Below are positions 9,321 through 50,835 of a stretch of 64,000 nt of DNA, one piece after another (positions within the stretch are counted from its first letter, which is position 1; the number at the start of each line of letters is the position of its first letter). The notes beneath the pieces are model-generated. The model worked only from the letters and a program-made list of their open reading frames with translations, did no database searches and was not told the DNA's origin. The translations under genes were made by a program, and so were the position numbers. Where the stretch lies: the NCBI GenBank assembly GCA_965261735.1, contig OZ253470.1:1920001-1984000 (forward strand), in the 5' to 3' direction. This DNA comes from Alphaproteobacteria bacterium (GTDB lineage: Bacteria; Pseudomonadota; Alphaproteobacteria; SHVV01).

Positions 9321-9322
9321 GT

Positions 9323-14700: not shown

Positions 14701-14905
14701 GCTTTCTCTGTTCTCCGAAGACGAACGCAGCCAGCTCAAGCGTGACCGGGCGGCCCTCGAAGCGCGCCTGGCCAGAATCCCGAAGGAGCGCGAGCAGGAA
14801 CTGCGCGCGATCGAGGAACGGCACTCCAATGCCGTCGAGCATACCTTCCCAGTGGCCGTCATTCTGTTGGTGCCAAACTCCCTCGCGACGGAGAAGCGCG
14901 GATGA
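11792..14905 (+). CDS. drmD: DISARM SNF2-like helicase DrmD
   Basis: LIADDVGLGKT, DEAH, LTATPH, TDAASEGIDLQ, EQRNGRIDRHGQ; ATGA overlap with vsr; operon order. Confidence 0.92.
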   Translation: MTADEMVAEVAHATAPEPGQLVEARRRQWIVSEVDGGSVAPGLPKWHLVRLASIDEDALGEEIEVLWELEPGAHVIERAGLPRMTGLDDPSTLQAFLDAVVWGAATNADRGYLQAPFRSGVSIEDYQLDPLVRAIDMARTNLLIADDVGLGKTIEAGLVVQEMLLRHRARTVLVLCPASLQEKWRVEMQEKFGLEFRIVDTEYVKRLRRERGLHANPWTSFPRLITSMDWAKQGEGLRLLRDALPPHVSHPRKFDLLIIDEAHNVAPTVGRYAVESLRTRLVRLAAPHFQHKLFLTATPHDGYIESFTALLELLDDQRFARNVLPSDPQLARVMVRRLKSDLVDANGKRIYPERRLEVLQIDYSDEERDARRQLEAYIKSRESGADGGRAVDHFVHQLLRKRLSSSPAAFAATLERHIATIEGRASSQRSQKKFDDRILRRAIAKTEEDYADDAQRDAAEAEAIEEAGKYVRPPTDEERQMLDRLRSWAQQAARRTDAKASALLDWLAKHLKDGDRWTNERVILFTEYRATQQWMQEILAAQGFGAERLALIYGGMDPKEREAVKAAFQANPSESPVRILLATDAASEGIDLQNHCHLMIHLEIPYNPNVMEQRNGRIDRHGQRASEVVIWHPVDAEGGHGDDILRALRKLDAMRADMGSVNPVIAPQLPDLLEGRRRELDTRQAEARIEKSRRFVKAERDLRDRVAKLHERLNETRREQSLVPDNIERAVRTALRLADKPDLEPVSLSGTPDGTVFRMPPLSGSWSRCLEGLEHPYTQKIRPITFDHDVAKGRDDVVLVHLNHRLVQMSLRLLRAEIWARDDVKKLHRFTVRSLPDGRIEGPAVVVMSRLVVTGGNHHRLHEELTEAGGYLRDTGFRREDRVTEVRRWLKESQPAALSDSTFDALRTRFDKQRDSVLAAVEARSKDRLRFLVNTIDTRKRKEADDIRQVLDDLERALKTEIAAEQQPLQLSLFSEDERSQLKRDRAALEARLARIPKEREQELRAIEERHSNAVEHTFPVAVILLVPNSLATEKRG

Positions 14906-18597: not shown

Positions 18598-18603
18598 CTC
18601 TAT

Positions 18604-21600: not shown

Positions 21601-22593
21601 GTCGGCTACTTCAACTCGCTGCGAGAACTCGGCGGTATGAAGCGGTTGGCGGAAGACGACGTCCAGACGCGTTCGTTCCGCGTCAATATGAGCTTGGTGG
21701 ACCGACCGGGGCTCTCCCAGCGGCGTGTCGAGGAAATCAGCGAACTGACGTCGCGCGTCTCAAGTCAGGACATTCCGCGATACCTCGATCAGCTCGAGGT
21801 TCCCTTCGAAGGAACCTTCGATCCGGCACAAGGCAAGTGGGTGACCAACAGGAAGCCCGGAGAGGCCCGGCCGATCGATGCCGTTCTTGCGACGAACATG
21901 CTGTCGGTCGGTGTCGACGTGAATCGTCTCGGGGTGATGGTCGTAAACGGTCAGCCCAAGGGAACGGCCGAATACATCCAGGCGACCAGCCGTGTGGGCC
22001 GCACGCCGCCGGGACTCGTGGCGACCGTGCTGACTTGGGCGCGGCCTCGCGACCTGTCGCACTACGAGACGTTCGAGCACTACCACGCGACCTTCTACCA
22101 GCATGTCGAGGCCCAATCCGTCACCCCGTTCTCACCACGAGCGCTGGATCGAGGGCTCACCGGCGCGATGCTTTCGATCATGCGCCACACCTATGATCCC
22201 TTCGCGGCGAATGATGGAGCTGGCGCCATGAACAGTCCAAGTCTCAACGAGATGCTGGAAACGATAGGCGCCGTCGCAGCTCGCACCTGGGAAGTCACCG
22301 AGGACTCGGGGAAGAAGGCTTTGACCGAAGCCGAGATGAAGAGCCGAGCCGACGAATGGGCCAATGAAGCGGGCGTTGGCGGCCGTACGCTCGTCTACCA
22401 GAAGCATGGCGCAGGTCCCACCGCCTATCCGCTGCTCTCAGCTCCGGGCATCAAGCCTTGGACCGACTGGACCGTCCCAATGTCGATGCGCGAAGTCGAG
22501 CCCGGTGTGAGGCTCGTGATGGAGGACAACCGATCAACCAGTGATCCGACTTGGCGACCGCGGGTGACGAAGCCCGAGGAGGATCAGCAATGA
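18604..22593 (+). CDS. drmA: DISARM helicase DrmA
   Basis: DLLGPAGG..RDRYLVGKLAP, FPTGGGKTEAY, YTLRLLT, QDEFHL, ATNMLSVGVDV, YIQATSRVGR, MSMREVE. Confidence 0.93.
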   Translation: MTNSSLSLSSAEGAWLCKTANASNPYTVRVDVGPTNHSAIAPDDWALVLRHDEAVAIVGRILRIRSDLDGATFHFDRWHLVEPAVPLAALGMTAPTGPVARLLWGEFLRILPLLGVADPHGVPLIDDVVYTRDLLEHAVRDDLLGPAGGPHELIKDMSVRDRYLVGKLAPRRPDDDQAARVEPASAAEEAGDLEDERAAPLHEPGAEFASASGRVEPEDDALDEIDTTNNQSLVPSSMGLTFCVALDVEKLTIDARWGRYERVPNDEHDIVKTRKNRATGHEEEVKVRVWQRIPCGGVVTLPLVDGQIQPSTPDRDQPDVRLQGTVRTNNKGERLVTLFLVNGQFEPDDNKDRAWLFQPEISVEATEDQTENSVFRRRPSNEVVVDDPERDRLALIYRNRLEFAVGHGVSVHAETTLEDPTKAHLVRTEIIPCYEVAVTETPGLDPMDRPAMRRMLDEGWLDMTRLAEMAPDALREALSCLVDDYAVWIGEQKARLGFEITGFDDPGKDVIERCEEILRRLREGMKTLFADPKALEAFRFANRSMAMQRVRSIYALKRRRNETVDMTTLDVPKNRSWRTFQLAFLLLSIPSLADPAHPDRTKPVEAFADLLWFPTGGGKTEAYLGVAAFAMAMRRLKKDLGGFDASRGLTVIMRYTLRLLTLQQFQRATTLLCAMEVIRRADGKTWGKEPFTLGLWVGNRVTPGTTEASHQAVEAIRNNDRNKAGIASPAQLTSCPWCGSEIYGGRDIEVDRIAGRTLIHCGDKLGSCDFSKAKSSGQPHPGLPVKVVDEEIYHRPPTMMIATVDKFAMMAWRPEVRNLFGRVDHECGRHGLLWPNHDCGTGHRARGAHPATSVKPVRAIRPPELIIQDEFHLISGPLGTMVGLYETAVDELSSWALDDTKVRPKVVASTATVRRADDQVRNVFMRRISVFPPSGLDIEDNFFSVQRPISEKPGRRYMGVCAPGSSRPAVLIRTYTAFLTAAQGLFDRFGPVADPYMTLVGYFNSLRELGGMKRLAEDDVQTRSFRVNMSLVDRPGLSQRRVEEISELTSRVSSQDIPRYLDQLEVPFEGTFDPAQGKWVTNRKPGEARPIDAVLATNMLSVGVDVNRLGVMVVNGQPKGTAEYIQATSRVGRTPPGLVATVLTWARPRDLSHYETFEHYHATFYQHVEAQSVTPFSPRALDRGLTGAMLSIMRHTYDPFAANDGAGAMNSPSLNEMLETIGAVAARTWEVTEDSGKKALTEAEMKSRADEWANEAGVGGRTLVYQKHGAGPTAYPLLSAPGIKPWTDWTVPMSMREVEPGVRLVMEDNRSTSDPTWRPRVTKPEEDQQ

Positions 22594-24431
22594 GCAGAAC
22601 TCCCGTAGGAGAAATCCGACCGAGCCAGCTGCTTTGGACCTACGGTCCAGGAGCCTTGATCGACCTCCCGAACATGTCGGTGGTCACGATGGGGATCGAT
22701 CGCTGGGAGAAAGACAGGTGTCAGCCGATACAAGAGGCACGGTTGCTGGCCAATGTCCGGAGCGTGCTCGGTCCCCAGGTCGATTCATTGCGTATGCCCC
22801 CTATCGGCGAAAGGGACATCGTAGATCCTTTTTCAGCGGCGGCGCTGATCGGCGTGCCCGTAAAGCCCTTCCCGAGATGGCTGCGCTGCGTGAAATGCGG
22901 CCTGCTGTCGCCCTATGATGCCGGGTTGTTCAAGCTGAAAGAGAACAGGTACCGCCCGGAATCGACGCGCTTCGTTCATGAGGGTTGTCGAGGATCGAGC
23001 AACAATCAAAGGGCCAGAGATGCCGATGCGGTTCCGGCCCGCTTCCTGATGGCATGTCGTGCTGGGCATCTGGATGACTTTGCGTGGCACTGGTTCGTTC
23101 ATGGCGGGCCGAGCACATGCCGAGCAACGCTGAGATTCTTCGAGAGCGGCGCATCGCTGCAAACCGAGAACCTGTGGGTCAAGTGTGACGGCTGTGGCGC
23201 ATCGAAGAACATGGCGCAGGCCTTCGGTCAGGCAGGTCGAGATAATCTGCCGGGCTGCCGAGGGCGACATCCGCACGTGGATCGGTTTGAGGACGACTGC
23301 AGCGAGGAACCCCGCGCAATCCTTCTGGGCGCGACCAATGGCTGGTTTCCCGTTACGCTCTCGGTTCTCGCGATTCCGCAGACAGGGAGTCCTTTAGCGC
23401 AACTGATCGCGGACGGCTGGACTTTCTTCGAAGACGTCAGTTCCGCCGCCGAAGTCGCCTTCGTCATCAAGACCCTCAAGAAGACCGCTCAGCTGCCAGG
23501 CATCGAGCAGTTCATCGACGAGCATATCTGGTCCGCAATAGAAGTCCATCGCAATGGCGGATCGACCGTCGAGCAGAGTGATCTCAAAGGGCCGGAATGG
23601 GATGTGCTGACGGCCGACAACCCGCCCACCGACTATCCGCATTTCATGAGCAAAATGGTCGGCATTCCTTCGGGCTTTGGTTCGGCGATCATACGCGTTC
23701 TATTGCTGGAGCGCCTTCGTGAGGTGAATGCACTCCTTGGGTTCACGAGGGTCGAGTCCCCAGACGAGGGCACGGGAGATGACGCAGCTCCAAGGGCACC
23801 ACTCGCACGCGCCGCGCCGAACTGGGTACCGGCCACGCAGGTCCATGGGGAAGGCATTTTCATCCGCTTCGATGCCGATGCTATGAAGGCTTGGGCGGAC
23901 AAGGATCCCGTGAAAGCGCTGGATGCTCGGCTCAAACAGGGGCACCGCGGATGGCGTCACAAGCGAAATCTCGACCCGAACCAGGGTTATCCGGGTGTTC
24001 GCTTCGTCATGCTACATACCCTCGCACACATGCTGATCCGGGAACTGGCTCTGGAGTGCGGCTACAATGCCGCCAGTATTCGTGAGCGGATATATGCGGA
24101 TGTCGATGATGGCAAAGATCAAGCCGGATTTCTCATCTACACGGCTGCGGCAGACTCCGATGGAACTCTGGGGGGACTGGTAGAACTCGGCAAGCCTGAA
24201 AATCTCGGCCGACTTCTACGCCAAGCGCTGGACCGCGCCCACATCTGTGCCTCCGATCCCCTCTGTGCAGAACATGATCCGAGCAAGGATCAGTCGCTTC
24301 ACGGCGCAGCGTGTCACGCCTGTTCGTTCGTCTCGGAAACTTCATGTGAGCGGGGAAATCGCAACCTCGATCGGTCCTTGGTCGTACCGACGCTCGAAAA
24401 TCCCGATGCAGCATTCTTCGAGACTGTCTGA
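22590..24431 (+). CDS. drmB: DISARM DUF1998 protein DrmB
   Basis: RPSQLLWTYGPGA, HTLAHMLIRELALECGY, CASDPLC..ACHAC..SETSCE. Confidence 0.93.
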   Translation: MSRTPVGEIRPSQLLWTYGPGALIDLPNMSVVTMGIDRWEKDRCQPIQEARLLANVRSVLGPQVDSLRMPPIGERDIVDPFSAAALIGVPVKPFPRWLRCVKCGLLSPYDAGLFKLKENRYRPESTRFVHEGCRGSSNNQRARDADAVPARFLMACRAGHLDDFAWHWFVHGGPSTCRATLRFFESGASLQTENLWVKCDGCGASKNMAQAFGQAGRDNLPGCRGRHPHVDRFEDDCSEEPRAILLGATNGWFPVTLSVLAIPQTGSPLAQLIADGWTFFEDVSSAAEVAFVIKTLKKTAQLPGIEQFIDEHIWSAIEVHRNGGSTVEQSDLKGPEWDVLTADNPPTDYPHFMSKMVGIPSGFGSAIIRVLLLERLREVNALLGFTRVESPDEGTGDDAAPRAPLARAAPNWVPATQVHGEGIFIRFDADAMKAWADKDPVKALDARLKQGHRGWRHKRNLDPNQGYPGVRFVMLHTLAHMLIRELALECGYNAASIRERIYADVDDGKDQAGFLIYTAAADSDGTLGGLVELGKPENLGRLLRQALDRAHICASDPLCAEHDPSKDQSLHGAACHACSFVSETSCERGNRNLDRSLVVPTLENPDAAFFETV

Positions 24432-25192
24432 TGGAAGCGATGCTGATCCCAGCTACGGACCTCGTGGCCCTGTTGTCTCCGTCGAGGATCGAAGCACTTG
24501 CTGATCGTGTCCGCGGCTCGCTGTCGGCCGAGAGAGATGGGAGCCTGCACCAGCTTGTGACCACGCCGGCTGCTCGCGCAGCACTTGATCGTCTAATCGT
24601 CACTTGGAAGCAGACGGGAATCTCAGGCGATGTATTGGCCGGTATCTTGGTCGGCGCGGCGTACGCCCGCCAACAGGCACAGCGCGAGAGCAATCTCGAA
24701 CTCGTTTGGACGGGCCCGACGACACCCTTCGTCGCCACCCGTCGCACAGAGCAGGTGCTTTTGGATCTCATCCGTCACGCGCAGAGCGACCTCTTCCTCG
24801 TCAGCTTCGTCGCATATGACGTCTCCTCGGTCGTCGACGCATTGAACGCTGCAGCCGCTCGCGGCATCGACGTCCGAATTCTGCTGGAGACGTCCACGAG
24901 TCATGGCGGGAGCCTGTCTGTTGATCCTGTCGCCACGATGCGGAGCTGTGTACCTCTGGCAGCCTTGTATGTCTGGACAGGCCGGCCATCACCGTTCACC
25001 GAAGGAAGGGTTCACGCGAAAGTGGCTGTCGCCGACGGGAATATAGCTTTTTTGACCAGCGCCAACCTGACCGGACACGCACTCGAGAAAAACATGGAGG
25101 CGGGCGTCGTGATCAGCGGCGGACACATTCCAACGGGCCTGCGCGCACATCTGCACGCCCTCATAGAGACGAAGATCATTCGTAAGATTTAG
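24431..25192 (+). CDS. drmC: DISARM phospholipase D-family nuclease DrmC
   Basis: LVWTGP, HAKVAVAD (HKD), TSANLT..NMEAG; TGATG coupling to drmB. Confidence 0.93.
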   Translation: MEAMLIPATDLVALLSPSRIEALADRVRGSLSAERDGSLHQLVTTPAARAALDRLIVTWKQTGISGDVLAGILVGAAYARQQAQRESNLELVWTGPTTPFVATRRTEQVLLDLIRHAQSDLFLVSFVAYDVSSVVDALNAAAARGIDVRILLETSTSHGGSLSVDPVATMRSCVPLAALYVWTGRPSPFTEGRVHAKVAVADGNIAFLTSANLTGHALEKNMEAGVVISGGHIPTGLRAHLHALIETKIIRKI

Positions 25193-30432: not shown

Positions 30433-31578
30433 TTACCCGCTGACTTCGGCGATTCTGCTCGCAATCCGATTGGCAGCGGATTTGACCGGATCGTTAGCGA
30501 GATGGGCGTAACGGGCGGTAGTCTGGACCTGGGTGTGGCCGAGCAATTTTCCGATCATTGGCAAACCCTCGCCGACCAGCAGCCCGCCGCTGGCGAAAGA
30601 GTGCCTCAAGTCATGAATTCGTACATCGTCGAGCGCGGCGCGCGCGCGGATGCGCCGCCAGGGATGTTGCAGGTCAGTAAGATGACTTCCCGGTTTGCGC
30701 CCCGCTATTACCCAGGGGTTGCCGTCACGCCTGTCGATGCGCTCAAGGACGGCGATCGCCGGATCGCCGAGATACACCACCTTGGCGCCCGTCTTGGAGT
30801 CCGGCAGGCGCAACTCACCCGCCTCCAGATCGACATGCTCCCAGAGCAGCTTCTGTATCTCCGATAGACGGCACCCGGTCAGCATCAGCAACCGCACCGC
30901 GGTGATGGCTGAGGCCGTCTCCGAACCGTCCACCTCGATATCTTTCAGGGCTGCGCCCAGACGTTGATACTCGACATCCGATAGAAACCGCTCGCGCTTC
31001 TCCTCTCGGAATCGCTTCACATGCCGGCACGGGTTCGAGCCGTCGGGGCGGAGATCCCACAGCTCCGCCAGATTGAACATCTTGGACAAAACCCCAAGCG
31101 TACGGTTGGCCTGATAGGGCGTGTCGCGCATATCGTAATGGAGCGCCGCGATATCGCTCCTCTGAATATCAGGCACCCGGTACCTGCCGATCCGGGGATC
31201 GATGAACAGCTTGACTGAGCGGCGGTATTCCTCGGCCGTGCTCGGCTTGCAATGGGTGGAGACATATTCCTTCAGGAACCGTTTCCCCAGCGCGATCATG
31301 GTCGGCGCGTCGGCATTGCGCCCCGCGGGGTTCTTTCCCGCTCTCGCGTCGGTGATGATCTCGGCGGCGCGGACGCGGGCATAGGAGGGGGTAACGGCGC
31401 CATGGGGGCCTATGGTCATCTTTATCACCCGGCCGCGATAGCGGGTCTTGACGATATAGACCTTGCGTCCGGTGGGGTGAACGCGCACCCCGAATCCTTT
31501 GAGGTCGTCGTCCCAGACAACGCGTTCGCGCTCTTGGCCGGCCAGTGCATCGACGGTGCGCTTGGTAATTTTGGCCAC
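30433..31578 (-). CDS. int: tyrosine integrase with N-terminal arm-binding domain
   Basis: WDDDLKGFGVRV; LTGCRLSE (R), SKTG (K), HDLRHSFAS, LLGH, TARYAH. Confidence 0.95.
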   Translation of the reverse strand: MAKITKRTVDALAGQERERVVWDDDLKGFGVRVHPTGRKVYIVKTRYRGRVIKMTIGPHGAVTPSYARVRAAEIITDARAGKNPAGRNADAPTMIALGKRFLKEYVSTHCKPSTAEEYRRSVKLFIDPRIGRYRVPDIQRSDIAALHYDMRDTPYQANRTLGVLSKMFNLAELWDLRPDGSNPCRHVKRFREEKRERFLSDVEYQRLGAALKDIEVDGSETASAITAVRLLMLTGCRLSEIQKLLWEHVDLEAGELRLPDSKTGAKVVYLGDPAIAVLERIDRRDGNPWVIAGRKPGSHLTDLQHPWRRIRARAALDDVRIHDLRHSFASGGLLVGEGLPMIGKLLGHTQVQTTARYAHLANDPVKSAANRIASRIAEVSG

Positions 31579-32137: not shown

Positions 32138-33015
32138 TCACCGGTTGAGAGTGCGACGCCAGTCCTTCCGCAGGGGTCGGAGCCAGATGTCCTTCTTCGG
32201 TTGATCCCGTCTGGTGTGTCGGTCGTATCGGCCCCGTCCCTTGGTGGCGACGAGAGTCCAGCCGGACGCCTTGTACAAGGCGCCGGTGAAGCGCGGGGTC
32301 ACGACGAAGGTCTCGATGAGCACGGGCGTGGTGTTGTAGCGCTCGGTCCAGTCGTCGGGCAGTTGCCGGCGGACCAGCGAGAGGATGTGCGAGCCCAGGT
32401 TGGGGATCGTGATCCAGGGCAAGATGAGGAACCGCGGATTGTCGGTCACGAGGGGAAGGTTCTTCTCGCGCAGTTGCGGCGTCCATCCGATGAAGCTGTC
32501 GCGGGGTGCGAGCTTGCGTGCCGCCGTGCTGAAGCCGAGCATGGCGAGCGGTGCGCCGTGGCGGTCGTGGACGGCGTAGCGCATCTGTGCGCCGACTAGA
32601 GTCTTGTAACCGAGGTAGTGGTAGCGGGCGACGAACTCGTTCCACCGCTTACCCTCGCGCGTGTAGCGCGCGACGGGCCGCAGGCTGAGCGGGCAGACCT
32701 CATCGAGGGTGGTCGGCGCCGGGACGGCGGCGGTTCGGTGTCCGGTCCGAAGACCATGGGCCGGCGCGGAGGGCGTGGGCATTTCGGCGGCGGTAAGACG
32801 ATCAGCCCGTCCTTGTGCATGGCCAGCATGGTCACCCTGGCCATCATGTCCTTGAGTCCGCCGTCGGGCTTGAGCCAGCCGATGCGTCGGCAGAACTCCC
32901 TGGACAGCGCATGGCGGTTGGGCGGCGGAGAGGCGGCGATGAGCGTGCGCAGCACCACCATCTCTTGGGTGGTGAAGTCGCGCCCGTAGTACCGGCACTC
33001 GGCGTCGGCCGTCAT
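32138..33015 (-). pseudogene. DUF4338 (DruA-like/IS-associated) gene, frameshifted near 32725
   Basis: RYYGRDFT..LSREFCRRIGW in one frame; WNEFVARYHYLGY..RDSFIGW..NPRFLILPW..LIETFV in another. Confidence 0.75.
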
Positions 33016-33211: not shown

Positions 33212-34172
33212 GGGAGTATCCGGAATTTTGTGCTTTGGGCCATAGTGATGAAAAAGAAAGGAGCATCCTATGGCAATCGAGAAGGAACTATTGGACCAGC
33301 TGTTGGAGGGGCGTGATCCGGAAACGGTATTCACCCAGGACGGTCTGCTTGACGAGTTGAAGAAAGGGCTGTCGGAACGTGTCCTGAATGCGGAGCTCGA
33401 CGCGCATCTCGATGCGGAAACGGCGGATGGAAAAACCAATCGCCATAACGGCCGATCGCAGAAGACGGTCCTCACGGGTACGTCGAAGGTGACGCTGGAT
33501 ATTCCACGTGACCGGGCCGGCACCTTCGATCCGCAGCTGATCGCTAAATACCAGCGCCGGTTCCCGGACTTCGACGAGAAGATCATCTCCATGTATGCCC
33601 GCGGCATGACGGTCCGCGAGATCCGCGGTCACCTTCAGGAGCTGTACGGTATAGAGGTCTCACCGGACCTGATCTCAACGGTCACCGATGCCGTTCTCGA
33701 GGAGGTGAGCGAATGGCAGAACCGGCCGCTGGATGCCTGCTACGCCATCGTTTTCTTCGACGCCATCCGGGTCAAGATCCGCGACGAGGGGTTCGTTCGC
33801 AACAAGGCGGTGTATATCGCCCTCGCCATTCTTCCCGATGGCACCAAGGAGATCCTCGGTCTGTGGATCGAGCAGACCGAAGGCGCCAAGTTCTGGCTGC
33901 GCGTCATGAATGAGCTCAAGAACCGGGGCGTGCAGGACATCCTGCTCGCCGTCGTCGATGGTCTCAAGGGCTTCCCCGAGGCGATCAACGCCACCTTCCC
34001 CGAGACTGTGGTTCAGACCTGTATCGTCCACCTGATCCGCCATTCCATGAATTTTGCGTCATGGAAGGATCGAAAACATGTGGCCAAGGCGCTCAGGGAC
34101 GTATACCGGGCCAAGGACGCCGATGCCGGCCTGGCGGCGCTGGATGCCTTCGAGGCCGGCCCCTGGGGCGAG
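33212..34172 (+). mobile_element. IS256-family element, 3'-truncated (transposase from 33270)
   Basis: Left end GGGAGTATCCGGAATTTTGTG; IPRDRAGTFDPQ, FFDAIRVKIR, VVDGLKGFPEAI, QTCIVHLIR. Confidence 0.9.
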
Positions 34173-34199
34173 GGCCGCATGTCGGCTAGATGCTCCAGG

Positions 34200-35655
34200 T
34201 TCATATCTACGTTCGGGACTCATGGCCTTGACCTGCATCGTCTCCCGCGGTGGCTGTGGCGGGGCGACAACCGGGTTCGCTGTGAAATCGAAGGGGATGC
34301 CGAAAACATCGGCGTATTCCACATTGAAGAGCCCTTCGTCAGGCCCTTCTTCGTTCACTTCGTAAGATTGGCGGCGTAGGGCACGGCCGATGACCTGCTC
34401 GCACAGAAGCTGGGTGCCGAAGGCGCGAATGCCGAGAACGTGGGTGACGGTATTGGCATCCCAGCCCTCGGTGAGCATCGATACGGAGACGACGCAACGG
34501 ATGGCGCCGCCAAGCTGGTCGGGCTTGCCGACGGTGTTCATGACCTCGCGGAGCAACTCCTGGTCGGTGATGTTGTCGCCGGCACGGGGGTCGCCGCTGC
34601 GCTCTACGATCTCGCGACGAAAGCGCTTGATTTCGCTGGCCGCCATGCCGCGAAAGTTCTTGTCGAGCGCGTCGCCGGCTTCGAGTTGCTCGCTATCGAT
34701 GAGGAGCGTGTTCGGACGCGGGAGAGGGTTGCCAGTAGTTTCGTCGAAATTGCGGAATAAGGCGAGGCGTCCGTTCACCAGGCTGGTCGTGTCGTCGTCG
34801 TTTTTGCGACGAAAACCGGAAATGAAGTCGTAAACAAGTTTCGAGATGGCTGTGTTCTGGCAAACGACGATGAAGCAAGGGGGAACTTTGATGCCCCGTT
34901 CGTCCCAAAGCTCGAAGGTCTTCTCGTAGTGGCCATAGAGAGCTTGAAGCGCCGTCTGTAAGCGCGTAGGGAGTTTAAGGGGGTCGAGTTCTTCGCCTTT
35001 GCCGCGCCCCTTCTTGGGCATGTCTTTTCGGATGTTTTCCCAGAGGTTTCGGAACATCGGCATTTCGTTGCCAGGAATATTTTCTGCGACAGGGACGCGC
35101 GGTAGTTTGACGATGCCGCACTCGATAGCATCCATGAGCGAAAAGTCGCTCATCGTCCACGGGAACAGCGTCCCCTCGGCGTAACCGGAACCCTTTAGAA
35201 AAAATGGCGTTGCTGACAAATCAATGACGCCGCTAAGGCCGAGCCTGCGATTCACTGCTTCAAGGCCCGAAATCCAGAGGCGTGCTGCCTCATTGGCTTT
35301 CTCCGCCTCTTTCCTCTCGTCACCTTTCAGATCTGCATCGTCGGCGTCTTTGAATTTCTCCCGATAGCAATGGTGCGCTTCGTCATTGATGACGAGGATG
35401 TTCTTCATGCCCATCAAGCCGGGCATAACCCGCTGGAGCATTTGGCCTTCCGTCTCCAACATCTTCAGTTCCTCGCCGCCACGTCCTTGCAGGAGTTGGC
35501 GCCCACCTTTGGACAGGGCGATGCGCTCGCGCAGCTTGAAGGCGTGGTAGTTGGTGATAACGATCTTGGCCCGGTTCACGTCATCGAGCATGTCGCCAGG
35601 AACGAGTTCGCGGTTGGCGTAGTAGCTATCGGGATCATTGGGCTGGAGGCGGAGC
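34200..35655 (-). pseudogene. internal fragment of a type III restriction Res-like helicase
   Basis: ITNYHAFK, INDEAHHCY, DLSATPF, SVSMLTEGWDA, CEQVIGRALRR; Walker A region and C-terminus missing. Confidence 0.8.
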
Positions 35656-36020
35656 GCGTAGGGTACTGGCAAGAGGCTGCCGGGAGCGGGGATCTGCATG
35701 AAGGGTCCGGAGAGCGGATCCCGAACTACGAGGATCACGACTGGAACGAGCAGCGCGAGCATCTTGCTGAAGATCTGGCCAGTTCGTCAGCGGTGTTCCA
35801 AAGGCCCGTGTTTCAGTTCTATCAGGCGGCAGCAGCGCATCGCGTGTACGTGCTGAGAGATCTTCTGCCGGGCCACGGATTGCTCGGTAACTGACCGGCG
35901 GGCGAGGCATGCAATTTGGGCTTGCCCGGGTAATCGGAGTAGGGATGCGGTCAGCATCGGCCGGCGGGAGACCATGACGCGATTTGGTTCAATGCAATCC
36001 GTGGACGGGGGAGAGGGGTT

Positions 36021-36887
36021 GTGAACGATAGGACATCGGGAGCGGCCGCTGGCGCCGTCGAGGCGGGAAAACCGGCTGCGGAGGCGAAAATACCGACAGC
36101 CAGGCCCGACGACGTGAAGCCGGGGCGGGATTTGGAAGATCTGATCGCAGAAGCCCGGGCGCTGGCCCTCTACGTTTCACGTCACGGCGATGCGCTGTCG
36201 AGCGACAATCACAAGCTGCACGAGGAGCTGTTGGCCGCCATAGCGAAGGTGGTCGATGAACCGTCCACGAGCGGATGGCGGGAACTGATGACCGCATATG
36301 CCAAGGTAACGGCGGTGACGTACAAGGACCGCGGGGTGAATGGGCGCACAATTCTCGATACCAAATTGGCTGGCAACACCAGATTCTGGCGTTTCGGATC
36401 GCCCAAGGATCGGCCGATACGCATTGGTATCCTGTTTTTTGTTCTTGCCCTGTTACTCGAACTGTTGATGCATTGGAGTGGCGGTGTATCGGACGCCACG
36501 ACGCTGGGCTGGATTGGTAGCTTGGGTCACCTGATCGGCACGACGCTCTCCAATCTCTTGTCACCCGCTCTATGGGGTGGCCTCGGGGCCTGTATCTTCC
36601 TGACCAAGCGGATATCGGACAAGCTGTTCGAACTGGCCTATGAAGAATCCCGCATGCGGGGCGATGTCACGCGTATTTTCCTCGGGTCCATGCTCGGCGT
36701 GGTGGCGGTGGTGCTGATCTTTCCCGACTTCACCGAGCGTGTCGTGCTCGGAGATGCGAGCCTCGGCCCGGCAACGGTTGCTTTTGTCGCCGGACTGGGT
36801 GTGAAACCGGTCTATGCGGCATTCGAGTCGTTGAGCGAGGAGCTCGCGCGCCGTTTCAGCGGCAAGAGACAGGCGGACCAGGGATGA
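36021..36887 (+). CDS. uncharacterised membrane protein (soluble N-terminus + about 4 TM helices)
   Basis: GAGAGG RBS + GTG; hydrophobic segments IGILFFVLALLL, ALWGGLGACIFL, RIFLGSMLGVVAVVLIF, VAFVAGLGV. Confidence 0.75.
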   Translation: MNDRTSGAAAGAVEAGKPAAEAKIPTARPDDVKPGRDLEDLIAEARALALYVSRHGDALSSDNHKLHEELLAAIAKVVDEPSTSGWRELMTAYAKVTAVTYKDRGVNGRTILDTKLAGNTRFWRFGSPKDRPIRIGILFFVLALLLELLMHWSGGVSDATTLGWIGSLGHLIGTTLSNLLSPALWGGLGACIFLTKRISDKLFELAYEESRMRGDVTRIFLGSMLGVVAVVLIFPDFTERVVLGDASLGPATVAFVAGLGVKPVYAAFESLSEELARRFSGKRQADQG

Positions 36888-37867
36888 GCGGGTTGAGATT
36901 GGTTCTGGCGGTCTTGTCGATTCCGGTCTTCCTGGCCGCTGCGTCAACGAGTTTGGCTGGAGGCCGGCCGGTTCAGGAGCCCCCGAAGGGCTACGACCAT
37001 GACCGGTTTGCCCCGAAACCCGACATATTGCGCGTGTTTCGGGGTTTCGTGGTGAGCTTCGATTCCAAGGATGACGATGACGGCCGATCGGGTGGCGATC
37101 TGCTGCGTGTGCCGCATTGGGTAAGCCAGGAACTGAGGAGTTGGGAGCCGCCGAAGGCGGTACAGGATGACGCCGCCGCTTGGTGTCTCGATACGCTTCG
37201 TAACCGGCCGAAATGGTTTACCGATGAGGATCTGTTCGAGACCGGCGTCGCCCCGAATGACGATAGCTACCGGAGCAGCGGGTTCGATCGAGGTCACATG
37301 GCGATGAAGCTGCTCGTCGAAAGGCTTGGACAGGACGCAGCCTACAATACGCATACGGTACTGAATGCAATCCCGCAGAGGCCGAAGTTCAACCAGGGGA
37401 TATGGCAGAACCTGGAATTCCTGACGGGTGCATGGGCGCAGAAGTACGGAAAAATCTGGGCAATTCAGGGTCCAGTTTTCTACAAGAAGACGACTCTTGC
37501 ATGGATAGGAGACGAAGGAGAACGGAAGGTGGCGGTCCCCGACGCGGCCTTCAAGGTAGTTGTTCGCGAGAAAACGGAGCAGGAGAGAAGCGTGGCGAAG
37601 GAGAGAGATCGAGATGCTCCCGAAGTTCTTGCGTTTTTGTATCCACAATTGGGCCCAGGGTATTTTGAATCGAGAAAGGACTATCGCCATTCGAGATTTC
37701 TAACTTCGGTTGATGAAATCGAGGAGCTGACGGGCCTGGATTTCAAACTGTCTCCCGACTCAGCTGTGGAGAAGCGGCTGGAACGTCGTCGGGCGACGGT
37801 ATTGTGGGAGCCGAGTGAGGTGGATCTGAAGCAGCGTCGCCTGTTTCTTTCAGGATGTCGTAATTGA
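36884..37867 (+). CDS. exported DNA/RNA non-specific endonuclease (NucA/Serratia His-Me type)
   Basis: Signal peptide ending SLA; PHWVS, GFDRGHM, NAIPQRPKFNQGIWQNLE, GPVF, VPDAAFKVV, IEELTGLDF; ATGA overlap with upstream gene. Confidence 0.9.
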   Translation: MSGLRLVLAVLSIPVFLAAASTSLAGGRPVQEPPKGYDHDRFAPKPDILRVFRGFVVSFDSKDDDDGRSGGDLLRVPHWVSQELRSWEPPKAVQDDAAAWCLDTLRNRPKWFTDEDLFETGVAPNDDSYRSSGFDRGHMAMKLLVERLGQDAAYNTHTVLNAIPQRPKFNQGIWQNLEFLTGAWAQKYGKIWAIQGPVFYKKTTLAWIGDEGERKVAVPDAAFKVVVREKTEQERSVAKERDRDAPEVLAFLYPQLGPGYFESRKDYRHSRFLTSVDEIEELTGLDFKLSPDSAVEKRLERRRATVLWEPSEVDLKQRRLFLSGCRN

Positions 37868-38248
37868 TTGGCTTTGCCGCTGTTCGTTTGCACTCGTGAC
37901 ATGGGCGTGGGGAGAACGTGGTCCGATCAACTGGCGCATCAGTCAACGTCGCAAATGGTTACGGACAACAGGGGACATGCTGCGACTGGATATAGATAGA
38001 ATCCGCTTACTATACGATTTCGGTTCACTGGATAGGTAGAAGTGGTGGGTCTGAGAGAAACCTATTTGTCAACATATTTCAAAGGTGTACGACCGAGCAA
38101 AACGGCGGACGACTAACTGGCGTCACACAAGAGTGCCGTAGATCGCGAGTTGTGTATTCCGGCGGTACGGGTTCGGGGCAGACTTTGTTTCTTTGCCCGC
38201 GGCCATTCCGGGCAAGCAAGCACGAACGCGATTCGGGCCGGATCGATC

Positions 38249-38821
38249 TCAGCGCCAGGGGGCGATCAGGATCTCGTCGACCACAGAGATCGTGTCGTCG
38301 CGCCCGATCTTGAGCAAGAAGACCTCGCCCGAGGCGGGGATCCGGCCCGTGAGCGCCGTGATGTTCACCTGATGGGTAACCAGGACAACGGTTTTCCCGG
38401 GCTGCAGGCCGAGCAGGAATTGCCGGAGTTCGGCGGTCTGCCGGCCAGCCCGGTCCCGGTTCCGGAAGAAAGAGTTCAGCGCGGGCAGGTCCGCGGCGGG
38501 GCCGAGGTCGAGGAATCGGGCCGTGTCGCGGCAGCGGCACCATTGGCTGGTGACGACCCGGTCGACGGTCGCGCCGGCGGCGCGAATCGCCGCCCCGATC
38601 TTTCGCGCCTGTTTCCGGCCCCGGGCGTCGAGATTGCGCTGGGTGGCGCAATCGTCGAGCGCGAACGATGCGGGGTCTCCGGTCCCCGGCGCGAAGGCGT
38701 GGCGCAGGATGGCGACAATGCCGGGCTCGGACAGGCGGGCAAAACGCGCGTCCGCGGCTGTCGGCAACGGGGAGAGAGAGAAGGCCGCCACCAGGGCGGC
38801 GGCGAGAAGCAGGCGCGTCAT
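38249..38821 (-). CDS. exported histidine phosphatase family protein
   Basis: Signal peptide; LRHAFAPG, QRNL, SQWCRCRDTA, VTHQVNI. Confidence 0.85.
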   Translation of the reverse strand: MTRLLLAAALVAAFSLSPLPTAADARFARLSEPGIVAILRHAFAPGTGDPASFALDDCATQRNLDARGRKQARKIGAAIRAAGATVDRVVTSQWCRCRDTARFLDLGPAADLPALNSFFRNRDRAGRQTAELRQFLLGLQPGKTVVLVTHQVNITALTGRIPASGEVFLLKIGRDDTISVVDEILIAPWR

Positions 38822-38983
38822 CGGCAGCTGTGTGAGACGGAGTGGCAATCGGGGCCGGCTGGACGAATCTAGCCCCCGGATTCGGAAGCTTCCAGTCATG
38901 TTGAGCATGCAATGCGCCGGTTGACGATGGCCAATGCCGGTCCTAACGGTGTCGGGTAAATGGAAGACCGACGGAATGGGGCG

Positions 38984-39050
38984 GTGAGCGAACGGGTCGC
39001 GCGGCTGCGCATCGAGCTGCAGGAGCTGGAGCCGAAGATCTGGCGGCGCA
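38984..39050 (+). pseudogene. 5' fragment of a pRiA4b ORF-3 family gene
   Basis: GTG-SERVARLRIELQELEPKIWRR, then breaks off. Confidence 0.5.
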
Positions 39051-39077
39051 GCCCTGACAACGCCGTGTCTGGCACGC

Positions 39078-39839
39078 TCATCGGCGAAAGGACGGGTCTT
39101 CCCGATCAAGGATCTCCTGTAGTTCCCTGAAGTGATCCTCGCTCAAATCCGGATAGTCGCGCCATTGTTGCGCTGTCTTCGCCGCCACGCGGCCGGAGAC
39201 GATGCCGAGTTCCCGGCCGGTCTGCAGGGCCGTAATGTAAGTCGAGCAGGCGCGCTCGAAATAATAGAGATCGTCGAACGCCCGGGCGACCGTTTCGCCG
39301 ATCGCCATCACCCCGTGGTTGCGCATGAGCAGAATCGGCTTGTCTCCCACCAGCCGCGCGATGCGTTCGGCCTCATCATCGAGACCCATGCCGTCGAAGT
39401 CCTCGTCGATGGTTATGCGTCCCCAGAACCTCATGGCGTTCTGGTCGATAGGCGGAAGCGTCGGATCGCCGAGGCAAGCAAGCACCGCGGCATATCTGGA
39501 GTGAACATGAAGCAGGCAGCGCGCATGCGGCATGCGCCGGTGGATGCCACCATGGAGCGCCCAGGCCGTGGGATCGGGAGCATCCGGCCGCACCATCGTC
39601 GCCTTGTCTTCAGCATCGAGCAGCAGAAGCTCGCTTGCCTTGATACGCGAGAAATGACGGCCCCTCGGGTTCATCAGGAACTTCGTTCCCGTTTCGTCGA
39701 CGGCGAGACTGAAATGGTTGGCGACCGCTTCGTGCATATCGAAGCGGGCCGCCCAGCGGAAGGCGCAGACAAGAGCGATCCGCTCTTCTTCGAAGTCCAT
39801 GCCGGGCCTATCGATAACGGCGGGCTGGGCCGAGGCCAT
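39078..39839 (-). CDS. class II aldolase/adducin family protein
   Basis: EAVANHFS, HGGIHR, LHVHS, LMRNHGV. Confidence 0.9.
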   Translation of the reverse strand: MASAQPAVIDRPGMDFEEERIALVCAFRWAARFDMHEAVANHFSLAVDETGTKFLMNPRGRHFSRIKASELLLLDAEDKATMVRPDAPDPTAWALHGGIHRRMPHARCLLHVHSRYAAVLACLGDPTLPPIDQNAMRFWGRITIDEDFDGMGLDDEAERIARLVGDKPILLMRNHGVMAIGETVARAFDDLYYFERACSTYITALQTGRELGIVSGRVAAKTAQQWRDYPDLSEDHFRELQEILDREDPSFRR

Positions 39840-43927: not shown

Positions 43928-44947
43928 ATGGATATTACGACAATTGGGTTTGATCTGGCAAAGACGGTGTTCCAGGTTCACGGTGCTGATGGTGAGGGAC
44001 GACCGGTACTACGGCGGAAGCTGCGCCGCGGGAAGGTGCTGGCGTTCTTCGCCGGATTGCCATCCTGTCTTGTCGGTATGGAAGCCTGTGCCTCTGCGCA
44101 CTATTGGGCTCGGGAACTGCAAGCACACGGGCACAAAGTTCAGCTGATTCCGCCTCAATACGTTCGTCCCTTCGTCAAAACGAATAAGAACGACGCAGCG
44201 GATGCGGAAGCGATCTGTGAGGCAGTGACGCGTCCGACGATGCGCTTTGCACCGGCGAAAAGCGCCGAGCAGCAGTCGGTTCTGATGCTGCACCGGGCCC
44301 GAGAGCTGTTGGTCCGTCAACGCACGATGGTGATCAATGCGCTTCGCGGCCACTGTGCGGAGCTCGGACTGATCGTCGCTCAAGGGGCGTCGAAGGTGGA
44401 GGAACTGGTTGCCATCATCGAAGATCCCGGCGATGTGCGACTGCCGCCTCTGGCACGCGAGGCGCTTGGCTCTCTGGTTGAGCAGCTCCGTTCTGCTCAG
44501 GCCCGGATCAAGCAGCTGGAAGTGACGCTTTTGGCATGGCACCGCTCCAACGAGGCGAGCCGCCGTCTTGCGACGATCCCCGGCGTCGGTGTCATCACCG
44601 CGACGGCGCTGGTCGCGACGATCGGCGATGGCGCACAGTTCCGCTCGGGCCGACAGCTTTCGGCCTGGCTCGGTCTCGTGCCCCGGCAGCACTCGAGTGG
44701 CGGCAAGGATAGACTGGGACGGATATCGAAGCGCGGGGATGGCTATATCAGGCGCTTGCTCGTGCATGGTGCGCGAACCGTGCTGCGCTGGCGCCGCGCC
44801 AAGCCGGGCACGGGGCCTGGCTGGACCGACCGGCTCCTGGCGCGGCGGCCGACAAACGTGGTGCTGGTCGCCATGGCCAATAAGGCAGCCCGTGTCGCCT
44901 GGGCACTGCTCAGGTACGAGCGTATCTACCGACCGACGCCGGCATAG
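43928..44947 (+). CDS. IS110 recombinase/transposase
   Basis: GFDLAK, MEAC, KNDAADAEAI (DEDD), IPGVG, GLVPRQHSSGGK, ANKAARVAW. Confidence 0.95.
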   Translation: MDITTIGFDLAKTVFQVHGADGEGRPVLRRKLRRGKVLAFFAGLPSCLVGMEACASAHYWARELQAHGHKVQLIPPQYVRPFVKTNKNDAADAEAICEAVTRPTMRFAPAKSAEQQSVLMLHRARELLVRQRTMVINALRGHCAELGLIVAQGASKVEELVAIIEDPGDVRLPPLAREALGSLVEQLRSAQARIKQLEVTLLAWHRSNEASRRLATIPGVGVITATALVATIGDGAQFRSGRQLSAWLGLVPRQHSSGGKDRLGRISKRGDGYIRRLLVHGARTVLRWRRAKPGTGPGWTDRLLARRPTNVVLVAMANKAARVAWALLRYERIYRPTPA

Positions 44948-49481: not shown

Positions 49482-50835
49482 TGTATGGACGCCCCCGGTG
49501 TTGCAAGGGGAAAACTGATTTGAATCGGCGGTAGAGCTTGCAGTCATGTATCCGGCCTTTTCGCTGCGGTACGCTGACCGCTGGCCCTGATGGAATCCGA
49601 AAGATCGACGCCCAGTCAGACTAACGAGCTTGATGCTCGGACAATGCCTCGGGTTTGGCCGATCTCGGGTGGAACCCTGTTTCGCCATCAAATCGTCGTC
49701 ACCCTCGCAATTTGATCCCGGTTTGCCAGCTGGCTATGCCGGCGTCGGTCGGTAGATACGCTCGTACCTGAGCAGTGCCCAGGCGACACGGGCTGCCTTA
49801 TTGGCCATGGCGACCAGCACCACGTTTGTCGGCCGCCGCGCCAGGAGCCGGTCGGTCCAGCCAGGCCCCGTGCCCGGCTTGGCGCGGCGCCAGCGCAGCA
49901 CGGTTCGCGCACCATGCACGAGCAAGCGCCTGATATAGCCATCCCCGCGCTTCGATATCCGTCCCAGTCTATCCTTGCCGCCACTCGAGTGCTGCCGGGG
50001 CACGAGACCGAGCCAGGCCGAAAGCTGTCGGCCCGAGCGGAACTGTGCGCCATCGCCGATCGTCGCGACCAGCGCCGTCGCGGTGATGACACCGACGCCG
50101 GGGATCGTCGCAAGACGGCGGCTCGCCTCGTTGGAGCGGTGCCATGCCAAAAGCGTCACTTCCAGCTGCTTGATCCGGGCCTGAGCAGAACGGAGCTGCT
50201 CAACCAGAGAGCCAAGCGCCTCGCGTGCCAGAGGCGGCAGTCGCACATCGCCGGGATCTTCGATAATGGCAACCAGTTCCTCCACCTTCGACGCCCCCTG
50301 AGCGACGATCAGTCCGAACTCCGCACAGTGGCCGCGAAGCGCATTGATCACCATCGTGCGTTGACGGACCAACAGCTCTCGGGCCCGGTGCAGCATCAGA
50401 ACCGACTGCTGCTCGGCGCTTTTCGCCGGTGCAAAGCGCATCGTCGGACGCGTCACTGCCTCACAGATCGCTTCCGCATCCGCTGCGTCGTTCTTATTCG
50501 TTTTGACGAAGGGACGAACGTATTGAGGCGAAATCAGCTGAACTTTGTGCCCGTGTGCTTGCAGTTCCCGAGCCCAATAGTGCGCAGAGGCACAGGCTTC
50601 CATACCGACAAGACAGGATGGCAATCCGGCGAAGAACGCCAGCACCTTCCCGCGGCGCAGCTTCCGCCGTAGTACCGGTCGTCCCTCACCATCAGCACCG
50701 TGAACCTGGAACACCGTCTTTGCCAGATCAAACCCAATTGTCGTAATATCCATCGTGGACGCTCCCTCTGTCTGGGTTGTTCAACACACTCCAGTATGGC
50801 TCATCGTGAAGCCGTAGGGGGCGTCCATACCATCA
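49482..50835 (-). mobile_element. IS110-family (IS1111 group) element, copy 2, inverted relative to copy 1
   Basis: Near-identical reverse complement of 43846-45199; same ends and same bridge-RNA region. Confidence 0.92.
49734..50753 (-). CDS. IS110 recombinase/transposase
   Basis: 339 aa; differs from copy 1 at two visible residues (P/S, L/F). Confidence 0.95.
   Translation of the reverse strand: MDITTIGFDLAKTVFQVHGADGEGRPVLRRKLRRGKVLAFFAGLPSCLVGMEACASAHYWARELQAHGHKVQLISPQYVRPFVKTNKNDAADAEAICEAVTRPTMRFAPAKSAEQQSVLMLHRARELLVRQRTMVINALRGHCAEFGLIVAQGASKVEELVAIIEDPGDVRLPPLAREALGSLVEQLRSAQARIKQLEVTLLAWHRSNEASRRLATIPGVGVITATALVATIGDGAQFRSGRQLSAWLGLVPRQHSSGGKDRLGRISKRGDGYIRRLLVHGARTVLRWRRAKPGTGPGWTDRLLARRPTNVVLVAMANKAARVAWALLRYERIYRPTPA

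Follow-up and report, generated by a model that had tools for sequence, protein, structure and literature searches.

We analysed a 64,000-nucleotide stretch of the genome of an Alphaproteobacteria bacterium (assembly GCA_965261735.1, contig OZ253470.1, positions 1,920,001 to 1,984,000), hereafter the window, in which two adjacent genes, here called g1 and g2, encode a membrane protein and a nuclease. An earlier note had proposed that this pair is a defence system acting at the cell envelope. The g1 product is predicted to cross the membrane with four transmembrane (TM) helices, and the g2 product is a predicted exported nuclease of the Endonuclease_NS family. The novelty of this locus is a mobile cassette in which a predicted exported nuclease has a membrane companion of its own that had not been described. 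The stop codon of g1 overlaps the start codon of g2 as ATGA (...CAG GGA TGA over ATG AGC), which suggests that the two genes are translationally coupled. The features of the pair and its cassette are given below; g1 and g2 were taken from a listing of open reading frames (ORFs), the overlap and the possible ribosome-binding site were read directly from the sequence, and related loci in other genomes and metagenomes carry numbers beginning with L.

36021..36887, plus strand: g1, GTG start, 288 amino acids
36884..37867, plus strand: g2, ATG start, 327 amino acids
36884..36887, plus strand: ATGA overlap of the g1 stop and g2 start codons
36009..36020, plus strand: purine-rich stretch upstream of the GTG, possible ribosome-binding site of g1
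36884-36958, plus strand: signal peptide of g2, about amino acids 1-25
37286-37297, plus strand: DRGH of g2, amino acids 135-138
37391-37393, plus strand: N170 of g2
37415-37417, plus strand: E178 of g2
35628..35891, plus strand: C-terminal remnant of a DUF6765 gene, about 80-93 amino acids, inside a chimeric ORF (35370-35894)
35651..37867, plus strand: shared cassette (DUF6765 remnant, intergenic region, g1 and g2), delimited by blastn against L001-L004

Between 35300 and 38400 we found no sigma-70-like promoter, and the number of terminators was not above the shuffled expectation.

g2 encodes a predicted exported non-specific nuclease

We found that g2 matches the Endonuclease_NS family (PF01223) with 99.9 bits (cut-off 23; E 2.2e-28) over amino acids 74-288 of 327. 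Among PDB sequences it matches EndoG (E 8.6e-11), EXOG and Anabaena NucA (about 1e-6), and its DRGH block aligns with that of EndoG. The residues D135, R136, G137, H138, N161, N170, E178 and C325 are invariant across 10 aligned nucleases, and besides C325 there is a second conserved cysteine in a WCLDT motif. The N-terminus carries a basic residue, a hydrophobic core and an AxA-like site (SLA followed by G), an arrangement that is kept in 7 of the 8 g2-type orthologs. In the closest relative of g2, the 95% identical L001 nuclease (8864-9808, plus strand), an in-frame deletion of 13 residues has taken away most of the hydrophobic core of the signal peptide. By these criteria g2 is a non-specific DNA/RNA endonuclease with a predicted intact catalytic site and export signal, and a new member of a well-known nuclease family. 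The earlier note had described both the signal peptide and a complete NucA-type site, and had seen no NuiA-like inhibitor; our data agree, as Pfam scans of the window neighbours and of the ORFs around related loci contained no such inhibitor. The source genome, a single contig of 5.03 Mb, encodes no other Endonuclease_NS protein.

g1 belongs to a large unannotated superfamily of membrane proteins

The g1 protein begins with a disordered segment (amino acids 1-33), followed by a helical cytoplasmic domain (34-125) and by TM helices predicted from family-averaged hydropathy and charge at 133-155, 167-193, 219-236 and 251-268, with a basic cytoplasmic loop at 194-218. Lysine and arginine are concentrated before the first TM helix, in the 194-218 loop and in the C-terminal tail, and the remaining two loops, of about 11 and 14 residues, are acidic. 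Because the positive-inside rule can be applied to this distribution, we infer that g1 faces the cytoplasm almost wholly and exposes two short periplasmic loops. This predicted topology argues against one role suggested in the earlier note, that of an anchor for a folded periplasmic nuclease; its other suggestions, a sensor or a pore, are conjectural.

A search of a large word-indexed protein database returned 136 close relatives of g1 at E<=1e-3, all of them unnamed, which share the invariant motifs VNGRT, WGGxGxC, KRxSDK, TRIFLG and AFxAGLGxKPxYxxFE; in the source genome g1 is the only member. The TM motifs GGLGA, RIFLG and AFVAG, which the earlier note had picked out along with a helical N-terminus, coincide with the invariant columns G186, G189, L221, G222, F255 and G258, and both parts of that description are borne out by hydropathy and by an AlphaFold 2 model (predicted local distance difference test, pLDDT, 61.7), in which a helical bundle (34-119) precedes four long helices. 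With a wider profile that included the proteins found in reversed gene order (see below), we obtained 3282 representative clusters, defined at 50% identity, at E<=1e-3, of which 1613 remain at <=1e-10 and 285 at <=1e-30. Nearly all members of this superfamily are 260-370 amino acids long.

Neither g1 itself, searched against Pfam, PADLOC and NCBIfam, nor 36 family members in a permissive Pfam scan matched a described family, and 35 sampled superfamily members contained no Pfam domain. The wide profile found no relative among PDB sequences (best E 0.032, to plectin), and the exhaustive superfamily search brought up no prominent fusions, the few longer matches (408-491 amino acids) being without a Pfam domain. 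Fold searches with the g1 model returned only generic helical bundles and TM bundles resembling G-protein-coupled receptors (best Z 9.3, under the meaningful level for helical models), and in the ESM Atlas g1 resembles unnamed clusters only. The 36 members gave nothing beyond noise against known holin families at E<=1 in Pfam, PHROGs not being searched. We set aside as unusable noise the matches to DUF7937 (3 of the 36 members, best 5.9e-5, below the cut-off), DUF6766 (0.026) and fvmX1 (0.0067).

Some superfamily members have uncharacterised neighbours of their own. In L010 (5215-8129, minus strand) and L011 (5144-7875, minus strand), a conserved trio of divergently transcribed genes occupies the position immediately upstream of the g1 homolog; apart from a weak match of one gene to the helix-turn-helix family HTH_3, the trio belongs to no Pfam family. 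In L070 (42-3848), on a replicon of Vibrio sp. THAF191d, a clear superfamily member with a YVARHGD motif (E 3e-32 to the wide profile) follows two tightly spaced uncharacterised genes of 648 and 258 amino acids on the same strand.

The g1-g2 pairing is conserved in two gene orders

A search of species-representative genomes with g1 yielded 15 loci, and scanning metagenomes with the family profile added 11, including two identical ones. We therefore counted 26 distinct g1 loci, namely the window and L001-L026 without L022, which is identical to L021. A g2-type nuclease gene lies directly downstream of g1 with a 4-nucleotide overlap in 8 of the 26 (the window, L001-L005, L018 and L020), which makes, besides the window, 5 among the 15 genome loci and 2 among the 11 from metagenomes. 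The overlap persists down to 51% identity in g1 and 49% in g2, and the nonsynonymous divergence (dN) of the two genes is correlated (r=0.97 over 28 non-independent pairs).

We also approached the pairing from the nuclease. In a sample of 400 genomes of the class, g2-like nucleases (E<=1e-20) occur in 6 other genomes, one of which corresponds to L001, and a 4-TM gene adjoins the nuclease gene in 4 of these 6. In L040 and L041 (one genus) and L043 the order is reversed: the nuclease gene comes first, and the distant 4-TM relative directly behind it scores 38-43 bits against the g1 profile across the TM core, carries the motifs YGGLGACV.LLR, RILLG and GFLAGY, and in all three loci has a start codon overlapping the nuclease stop as ATGA. 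In L039 and L042 the nuclease has no 4-TM gene beside it. An apparent fusion of nuclease and 4-TM protein in L040 was rejected, as the long frame is an out-of-frame, arginine-rich read-through of the GC-rich nuclease gene; the 4-TM gene there has its own ATG, overlapping the nuclease stop.

Because the pairing occurs in both gene orders, each with a start/stop overlap, it is strong evidence for joint function. Taken together, these comparisons show a conserved, co-inherited pair whose functional link appears to be old. A phylogenetic tree was built from 27 g1 homologs, without L022 because of its identity to L021 and with L023 and L025 as partial sequences; its backbone was unresolved, so it does not distinguish a single from a multiple origin of the link to the nuclease. 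A prediction of the g1-g2 complex from our own alignments scored 0.09 against a mark of 0.32, which counts neither way.

Given this conservation, the view that g1 and g2 have no joint function and merely hitch-hike as neighbours on mobile DNA is hardly credible: the cassette is mobile and half of the g1 homologs have no nuclease, yet the 4-nucleotide overlap is kept in 8 loci to 51%/49% identity, the opposite order occurs in 3 loci, and both genes have stayed under purifying selection and diverged in step while the upstream DUF6765 gene decayed.

The pair lies on a mobile cassette under purifying selection

Comparison of the window with its closest relatives by blastn revealed a shared block of about 2.2 kb, which starts within the DUF6765 remnant, ends at the stop codon of g2 and is bordered by unrelated flanks. 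The identity is 94% with L001 (over 35948-38053), 88% with L002 (35735-37877), and 85% with both L003 (35651-37864) and L004 (35708-37864). L001 and L002 are metagenome-assembled genomes of Alphaproteobacteria, and L003 and L004 are metagenome-assembled genomes of Nitrospirales, in chromosome-scale records of 2.35 and 2.53 Mb. Synonymous divergence (dS) among the copies is 0.06-0.66, and 0.39-0.66 between Alphaproteobacteria and Nitrospirales; dN/dS is 0.12-0.32 for g1 and 0.10-0.24 for g2. Both genes are under purifying selection. Because dS between the two groups is 0.39-0.66 and dN/dS is low, the cassette has recently been exchanged between alphaproteobacterial and Nitrospirales chromosomes, and hence between phyla, with both genes maintained. 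That g1 and g2 are two intact genes with an ATGA overlap, as the earlier note held, is upheld by the ORF listing and the sequence, by the 136 homologs of g1 and by the dN/dS of 0.10-0.32 across the cassette.

The upstream gene has had a different fate. Of DUF6765, L003 retains about 122 amino acids, the window 81-93, L004 about 60 and L002 about 50, and L001 has an insertion sequence (IS) in its place. Since the gene is truncated at a different point in each genome, DUF6765 was an ancestral and dispensable member of the cassette. The earlier note had guessed that the truncated plus-strand ORF ending at 35894 is a lost third component, and this ORF indeed carries the DUF6765 C-terminal remnant.

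Part of the stretch is contained in 21 public sequencing runs from nine studies, of which we compared four. One RNA library (X20) contains contigs from a variant that shares about 96% identity with the window; they cover 35811-36727, 36751-37082 and 37183-37933. The second of them spans the junction of g1 and g2, a weak sign of co-transcription that could also reflect DNA carry-over, and the contigs diverge from the window at 35811 and 37933, near the edges of the cassette. Separately, at 35502-35602 the contig depth is 10-100 times that of the flanks in all four runs, with numerous short contigs diverging to its left and right. The segment is a short motif of wide conservation in the minus-strand restriction endonuclease fragment beside the cassette, probably a helicase motif common to many organisms.

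Relatives of g1 also adjoin lipases and DUF6765

To describe the neighbours of g1 relatives, we scanned 120, 55 and 21 ORFs of related loci against Pfam and used local profiles in addition. A Tle1-like catalytic domain (PF09994) is encoded next to g1 in three loci, upstream in L004 and L023 and after the nuclease in L018. Intact DUF6765 genes adjoin g1 in L011 (downstream, overlapping) and L013 (upstream), and remnants of DUF6765 lie in the window, L002, L003 and L004. In L012 a PGAP1-like alpha/beta hydrolase without an N-terminal hydrophobic segment is encoded upstream of g1. In L021 (1946-8922), two g1 paralogs about 42% identical to g1 flank, within 3 kb, an Endonuclease_NS gene of a different type, with a Prok-JAB and patatin fusion protein encoded nearby. 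In L052 and L053 (one genus) an exported protein of the metallo-beta-lactamase fold is encoded directly upstream of a superfamily member, and in L018 the g1-nuclease-Tle1 set adjoins a pair of genes for an HlyD/ATP-binding cassette (ABC) exporter. The Tle1-like and DUF6765 proteins start at position 1 of their profiles, and therefore have no signal peptide. These observations show that genes of the 4-TM superfamily recur beside genes for predicted lipid- or nucleic-acid-degrading enzymes. On plasmid pC33 of Sphingomonas changnyeongensis (L069, 3255-5471), an exported Endonuclease_NS gene stands immediately ahead of a Tle1-like gene that is split in two ORFs, between IS elements and with no 4-TM gene; the pairing of nuclease and Tle1-like protein, seen also in L018 and L004, therefore recurs alone.

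We identified the remnant in the window from its match to positions 251-325 of 325 in PF20551 (27.2 bits, cut-off 26.6) and from tblastn with the intact L011 and L013 proteins (42% identity, E about 1e-12), with which a whole-genome scan agrees. The DUF6765 family has at least 1606 proteins at E<=1e-10. A model of the family (pLDDT 82, predicted template modelling score 0.85) was compared by VIA-align with 48,161 chains, and its top six matches all have the fold of zinc-dependent phospholipase C (Zn-PLC) and S1-P1 nuclease, aligned from residue 1: 1olp (Z 6.7; 168 residues aligned, root-mean-square deviation 5.4), 1ah7 (Z 6.1; 156 of 245), 8cqm (5.7), 8qjl (4.9), 5fb9 (4.6) and 3w52 (4.5), with the next, unrelated match at 4.1. 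Three chains reach Z>=5, all of this fold, and all values are below 8. Foldseek returned nothing at E<=0.001, and in the ESM Atlas the protein resembles only itself. Nine residues are invariant in 30 sequences (H6, D35, D36, H80, H128, D132, H136, H223 and D231) and are candidate metal ligands. From the modest Z-scores and the invariant histidines and aspartates, DUF6765 is probably a distant hydrolase of the Zn-PLC/S1-P1 nuclease fold. We rejected DUF6765 as an obligate partner of g1: it occurs in 8 of 400 other genomes of the class, g1 is adjacent in 1 of the 7 intact loci, and that one locus comes from the same genome as L011.

Genomic surroundings and defence genes

Outside the cassette, we found the following features on its left side.

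10265-25192: complete DISARM set, with DrmMII (C5 methylase), DrmD, DrmMI, DrmA, DrmB and DrmC, all very strong PADLOC matches
30433-31578: phage-type integrase
32138-32998: partial DruA
33270-34379: truncated Mutator-family transposase
34059..35762, minus strand: truncated restriction endonuclease of the BPTD_3080 family (NF046055, E 1.3e-210)

Rightward of DISARM come two periplasmic binding proteins and then, in this order, the integrase, DruA, the transposase and the restriction endonuclease fragment, so that an integrase and decayed defence genes (partial DruA and the BPTD_3080 fragment) follow DISARM within 10 kb. The restriction endonuclease fragment covers positions 209-670 of the 970 in the NF046055 profile and, because it is partial, scores under the 800-bit cut-off of that profile; it also has a weak PADLOC match to REase_III. 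Its homology stops at about 35648-35651, about where the homology of the cassette begins, and it abuts the left edge of the cassette. The earlier note had pointed to DISARM nearby and to a restriction remnant beside the pair, and we found both. It had further stated that most neighbours are fragments, which is true of the left side (the DUF6765 remnant, the restriction endonuclease fragment, the truncated transposase and the partial DruA) and not of the right, where a histidine-phosphatase-family gene, a class II aldolase and a LysR regulator have ordinary Pfam matches.

The histidine phosphatase ORF (38249-39109, minus strand) has an internal methionine followed by a signal-peptide-like segment (MTRLLLAAALVAAFSLSPLPTAADA). 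The protein is probably exported and about 190 amino acids long, and its gene converges on g2 and lies outside the shared cassette. Further to the right, two equally long IS110-family transposase genes, inverted relative to each other (43928-44947, plus strand, and 49734-50753, minus strand), bracket about 5 kb that includes ORFs without a Pfam match and may constitute a composite transposon. The window contains no tRNA gene.

We ran PADLOC on 126 ORFs from 10 loci, out of 181 ORFs from 14 loci; L012, L023, L009, L010 and one 1799-amino-acid relaxase ORF of L013 were left out. Defence genes were recognised in L001 (AbiEi, AbiEii and a cyclase fragment), L002 (BstA and HEC-05), L004 (PDC-M71B, a type ISP/IIG restriction-modification enzyme, a C5 methyltransferase, Vsr and a TIR protein), L005 (LmuB, DUF626_VIII and a methyltransferase) and L021 (the JAB-patatin protein), and nothing convincing in L011 and L013. 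Thus, 5 of the 6 close cassette copies (the window, L001, L002, L004 and L005; not L003) have defence genes no more than 8 kb away, the neighbours counted for the window being DISARM, DruA and the restriction endonuclease fragment. This raw count is suggestive and is no enrichment test. Transposases, UmuDC, a TrwC relaxase and Tn7-like TniB/TniQ genes mark several of the loci as mobile. The claim in the earlier note of a defence neighbourhood is therefore right for the close copies, which sit in defence or mobile surroundings, and does not extend to the distant pairs L018 and L020, which have no defence neighbours.

Comparison with known systems

The g2 protein has in common with Serratia and Anabaena NucA and with EndoG and EXOG the PF01223 domain, the DRGH histidine and the Asn/Glu metal site, and bacterial members of Endonuclease_NS likewise have export signals; it differs from these enzymes in extra N- and C-terminal segments outside the Pfam match. 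We know of no description of a conserved, translationally coupled 4-TM partner for them. In the NucA-NuiA system of Anabaena, a non-specific nuclease is encoded with a dedicated protein able to protect the producer, a concept like that of g1 and g2. However, g1 is a membrane protein with a helical N-terminal domain whose relatives also accompany lipases, and because no NuiA is present, g1/g2 does not have the NucA-NuiA arrangement.

A multi-TM protein rich in small residues, beside an enzyme that the inner membrane separates from its substrate, is also the logic of holin-endolysin pairs, including pinholins with signal-anchor-release endolysins and holin-dependent release. Here the direction would be inverted, with the enzyme outside and the substrate inside, and there is no muralytic enzyme; moreover, g1 is larger than holins, has a conserved cytoplasmic domain and shows no homology to Pfam holin families. 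Kiwa (KwaA/KwaB), Zorya and CBASS-type gene sets (patatin, nuclease, TM protein) combine a membrane component with degradative effectors. With these g1/g2 shares a location in defence islands and a repertoire of lipase- and nuclease-type enzymes, but neither gene matches PADLOC, the cassette has no cyclase or signalling gene, and the nuclease is predicted to be exported.

SNIPE is reported to be an inner-membrane nuclease that attacks entering phage DNA and spares self-DNA by its location, built as one polypeptide with a single N-out TM helix and a cytoplasmic DUF4041 and GIY-YIG nuclease (Saxton et al., Nature 2026, PMC13190303). By contrast, g1/g2 consists of two separate proteins, a partner with four TM helices and a beta-beta-alpha-Me nuclease whose predicted place is the periplasm. 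We found no DUF4041 or GIY-YIG match in g1 or g2, and no sequence relation to SNIPE. To judge from the genes that were found and the families that were matched, g1/g2 is neither SNIPE, nor a type VI secretion system (T6SS) pair, nor any PADLOC system. In the open-access papers that we searched, we found no description of the g1 family, DUF6765 or this combination of genes, no paper for DUF6765, DUF7937, PF25592 or PF20551, none linking Endonuclease_NS to defense islands, no relevant paper on a periplasmic nuclease with a membrane protein in phage defense and, for DUF2235 with an anti-phage role, T6SS papers only.

Possible functions of the pair

The pairing is solid, as is the size of the unannotated superfamily; the case for a role in defence is circumstantial. 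The reading that we place first, and hold only tentatively, is that g1/g2 is a mobile conflict module, for defence or abortive infection, in which a cytoplasm-facing membrane protein gates enzymes that are kept in the wrong compartment. The nuclease would be exported to the periplasm, out of reach of the cell's own DNA, and the Tle1-like lipases, having no signal peptide, would remain in the cytoplasm; T6SS Tle lipases are, as far as is known, harmless there and toxic only from the periplasmic side. The helical N-terminal domain of g1 would sense a trigger, and its TM helices, which are rich in small residues, might then oligomerise into a gate or pore through which each enzyme reaches its substrate. 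The outcome would be abortive infection, by a holin-like logic in reverse. In a milder version, g1 would position the nuclease at the membrane or at sites of DNA entry, where it might cut DNA as it enters. The fuller proposal, suicide or entry-level immunity by compartment sequestration in which a sensor-gate of this superfamily breaches the inner membrane on infection, is doubtful.

Several observations weigh against the gated-module reading. No recognised hydrolase partner is present at 13 of the 26 g1 loci, several of which lie in conserved housekeeping synteny, although L016, L023 and L025 are short contigs, and a partner there might be situated beyond the contig end. In the class sample, 15 of 400 other genomes contain the superfamily, and at the 12 newly fetched superfamily loci of this sample neither the nuclease nor DUF6765 nor a Tle1-like gene was found (0 of 12). 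In the phylum around the genome of L012, weak superfamily matches occur in 5 of 350 other genomes, with partner enzymes at 0 of 6 loci. The expectation in the earlier note that homologs of g1 and g2 co-occur holds for the overlapping pair in 8 of 26 loci and fails for about half of the g1 homologs, which have no hydrolase partner and stand in housekeeping contexts. We found neither g1 nor g2 in viral contigs and no g1 in phage or plasmid records. Neither g1 nor g2 matched any family of PADLOC-DB v2.0.0 (5027 models, 2023, covering components of Kiwa, Zorya, CBASS, Lamassu and DISARM among others) at E<=0.01, which accords with the remark in the earlier note that the pair was not recognised as a named system; among the 126 ORFs, the g1/g2 orthologs, the Tle1-like proteins and DUF6765 had no match at 1e-8, and PADLOC recognised nothing convincing in L003, L018 and L020. 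The proximity of defence genes to 5 of 6 copies may partly reflect mobile DNA landing in variable regions. The g1 model is modest (pLDDT 61.7), matches generic bundles and does not support a pore. Finally, exported Endonuclease_NS enzymes are typically plain extracellular nucleases, and the apparently exported histidine phosphatase converging on g2 would suit DNA scavenging.

Two other explanations deserve weight, both of them unlikely. In the first, g1 is a holin-like, non-lytic exporter resembling type 10 secretion, and the enzymes act outside the cell, feeding on or attacking other cells; the leaderless lipases and DUF6765 would cross the inner membrane via g1, and the nuclease would use Sec. 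Such an exporter would fit the occurrence of leaderless partners (Tle1-like, DUF6765 and PGAP1-like) alongside an exported nuclease and metallo-beta-lactamase-fold protein, the HlyD/ABC exporter pair beside g1-nuclease-Tle1 in L018, and the Sphingomonas plasmid on which an exported nuclease precedes a Tle1-like gene. Yet that plasmid pair has no 4-TM gene, and the tightest and oldest coupling of g1 is to a nuclease with its own Sec signal, which needs no help at the inner membrane. Nor did the Pfam scans of neighbours reveal a peptidoglycan hydrolase partner, the M23 peptidase of L020 being 1.5 kb off on the other strand, and g1, with 288 amino acids and a cytoplasmic domain of about 125, is unlike the small holins.

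The second, to which we give the same low weight, is that g2 is an ordinary secreted nuclease, serving nutrition, biofilm or a block to DNA uptake, and that g1 is a self-protection or handling factor, a membrane-bound analogue of NuiA. The signal peptide, cysteines and intact site of g2 are those of extracellular Endonuclease_NS enzymes, translational coupling gives matched amounts of the two proteins, and the cytoplasmic domain of g1 is on the correct side of the membrane to meet a pre-nuclease. The L001 nuclease, which has stayed otherwise intact despite the 13-residue deletion in its signal-peptide core, and the apparently exported histidine phosphatase beside g2 would also suit this explanation. 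Set against it, the phosphatase lies outside the shared cassette, no nuclease-bearing locus has phosphate or nucleoside uptake genes, and relatives of g1 also pair with lipases or DUF6765 or stand alone. There is no NuiA-like protein or fold either, as no neighbour has such a Pfam match and the N-terminal domain of g1 is an all-helical bundle, and the defence-island context of 5 of 6 close copies would be left unexplained.

Far less probable is an interbacterial toxin with its immunity protein, in which the nuclease and lipases would be delivered T6SS-type (Tle/Tde) toxins and g1 would confer immunity. The Tle1-like domain (PF09994) beside g1 in L004, L018 and L023 recalls this, and nucleases and lipases are classic types of antibacterial effector. 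We searched the five cassette-bearing genomes (G000 and L001-L004) for one gene of the T6SS apparatus, the sheath gene VipB (PF05943), and because it was absent from all five, with a positive E. coli control, this explanation is weakened. In addition, the Pfam matches of neighbouring ORFs include no PAAR, VgrG, Rhs, LXG or DUF4123, the nuclease uses a Sec signal, and one conserved immunity protein for unrelated enzymes would be atypical.

Whatever its function, g1 defines a large superfamily of membrane proteins with no Pfam coverage in the sampled members, and the work provides a recurrent, testable partnership with exported nucleases and a functional lead for DUF6765. If g1 controls where and when the nuclease and lipases meet their substrates, the system would achieve safety by location alone, with no inhibitor and no sequence recognition. 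This principle has been shown only recently, by SNIPE, in a different architecture (PMC13190303). Should the fuller proposal of immunity by compartment sequestration prove true, the 4-TM superfamily would serve degradative effectors as a hub that is widespread and has gone unrecognised, and the cassette would be a module that phyla trade with one another.

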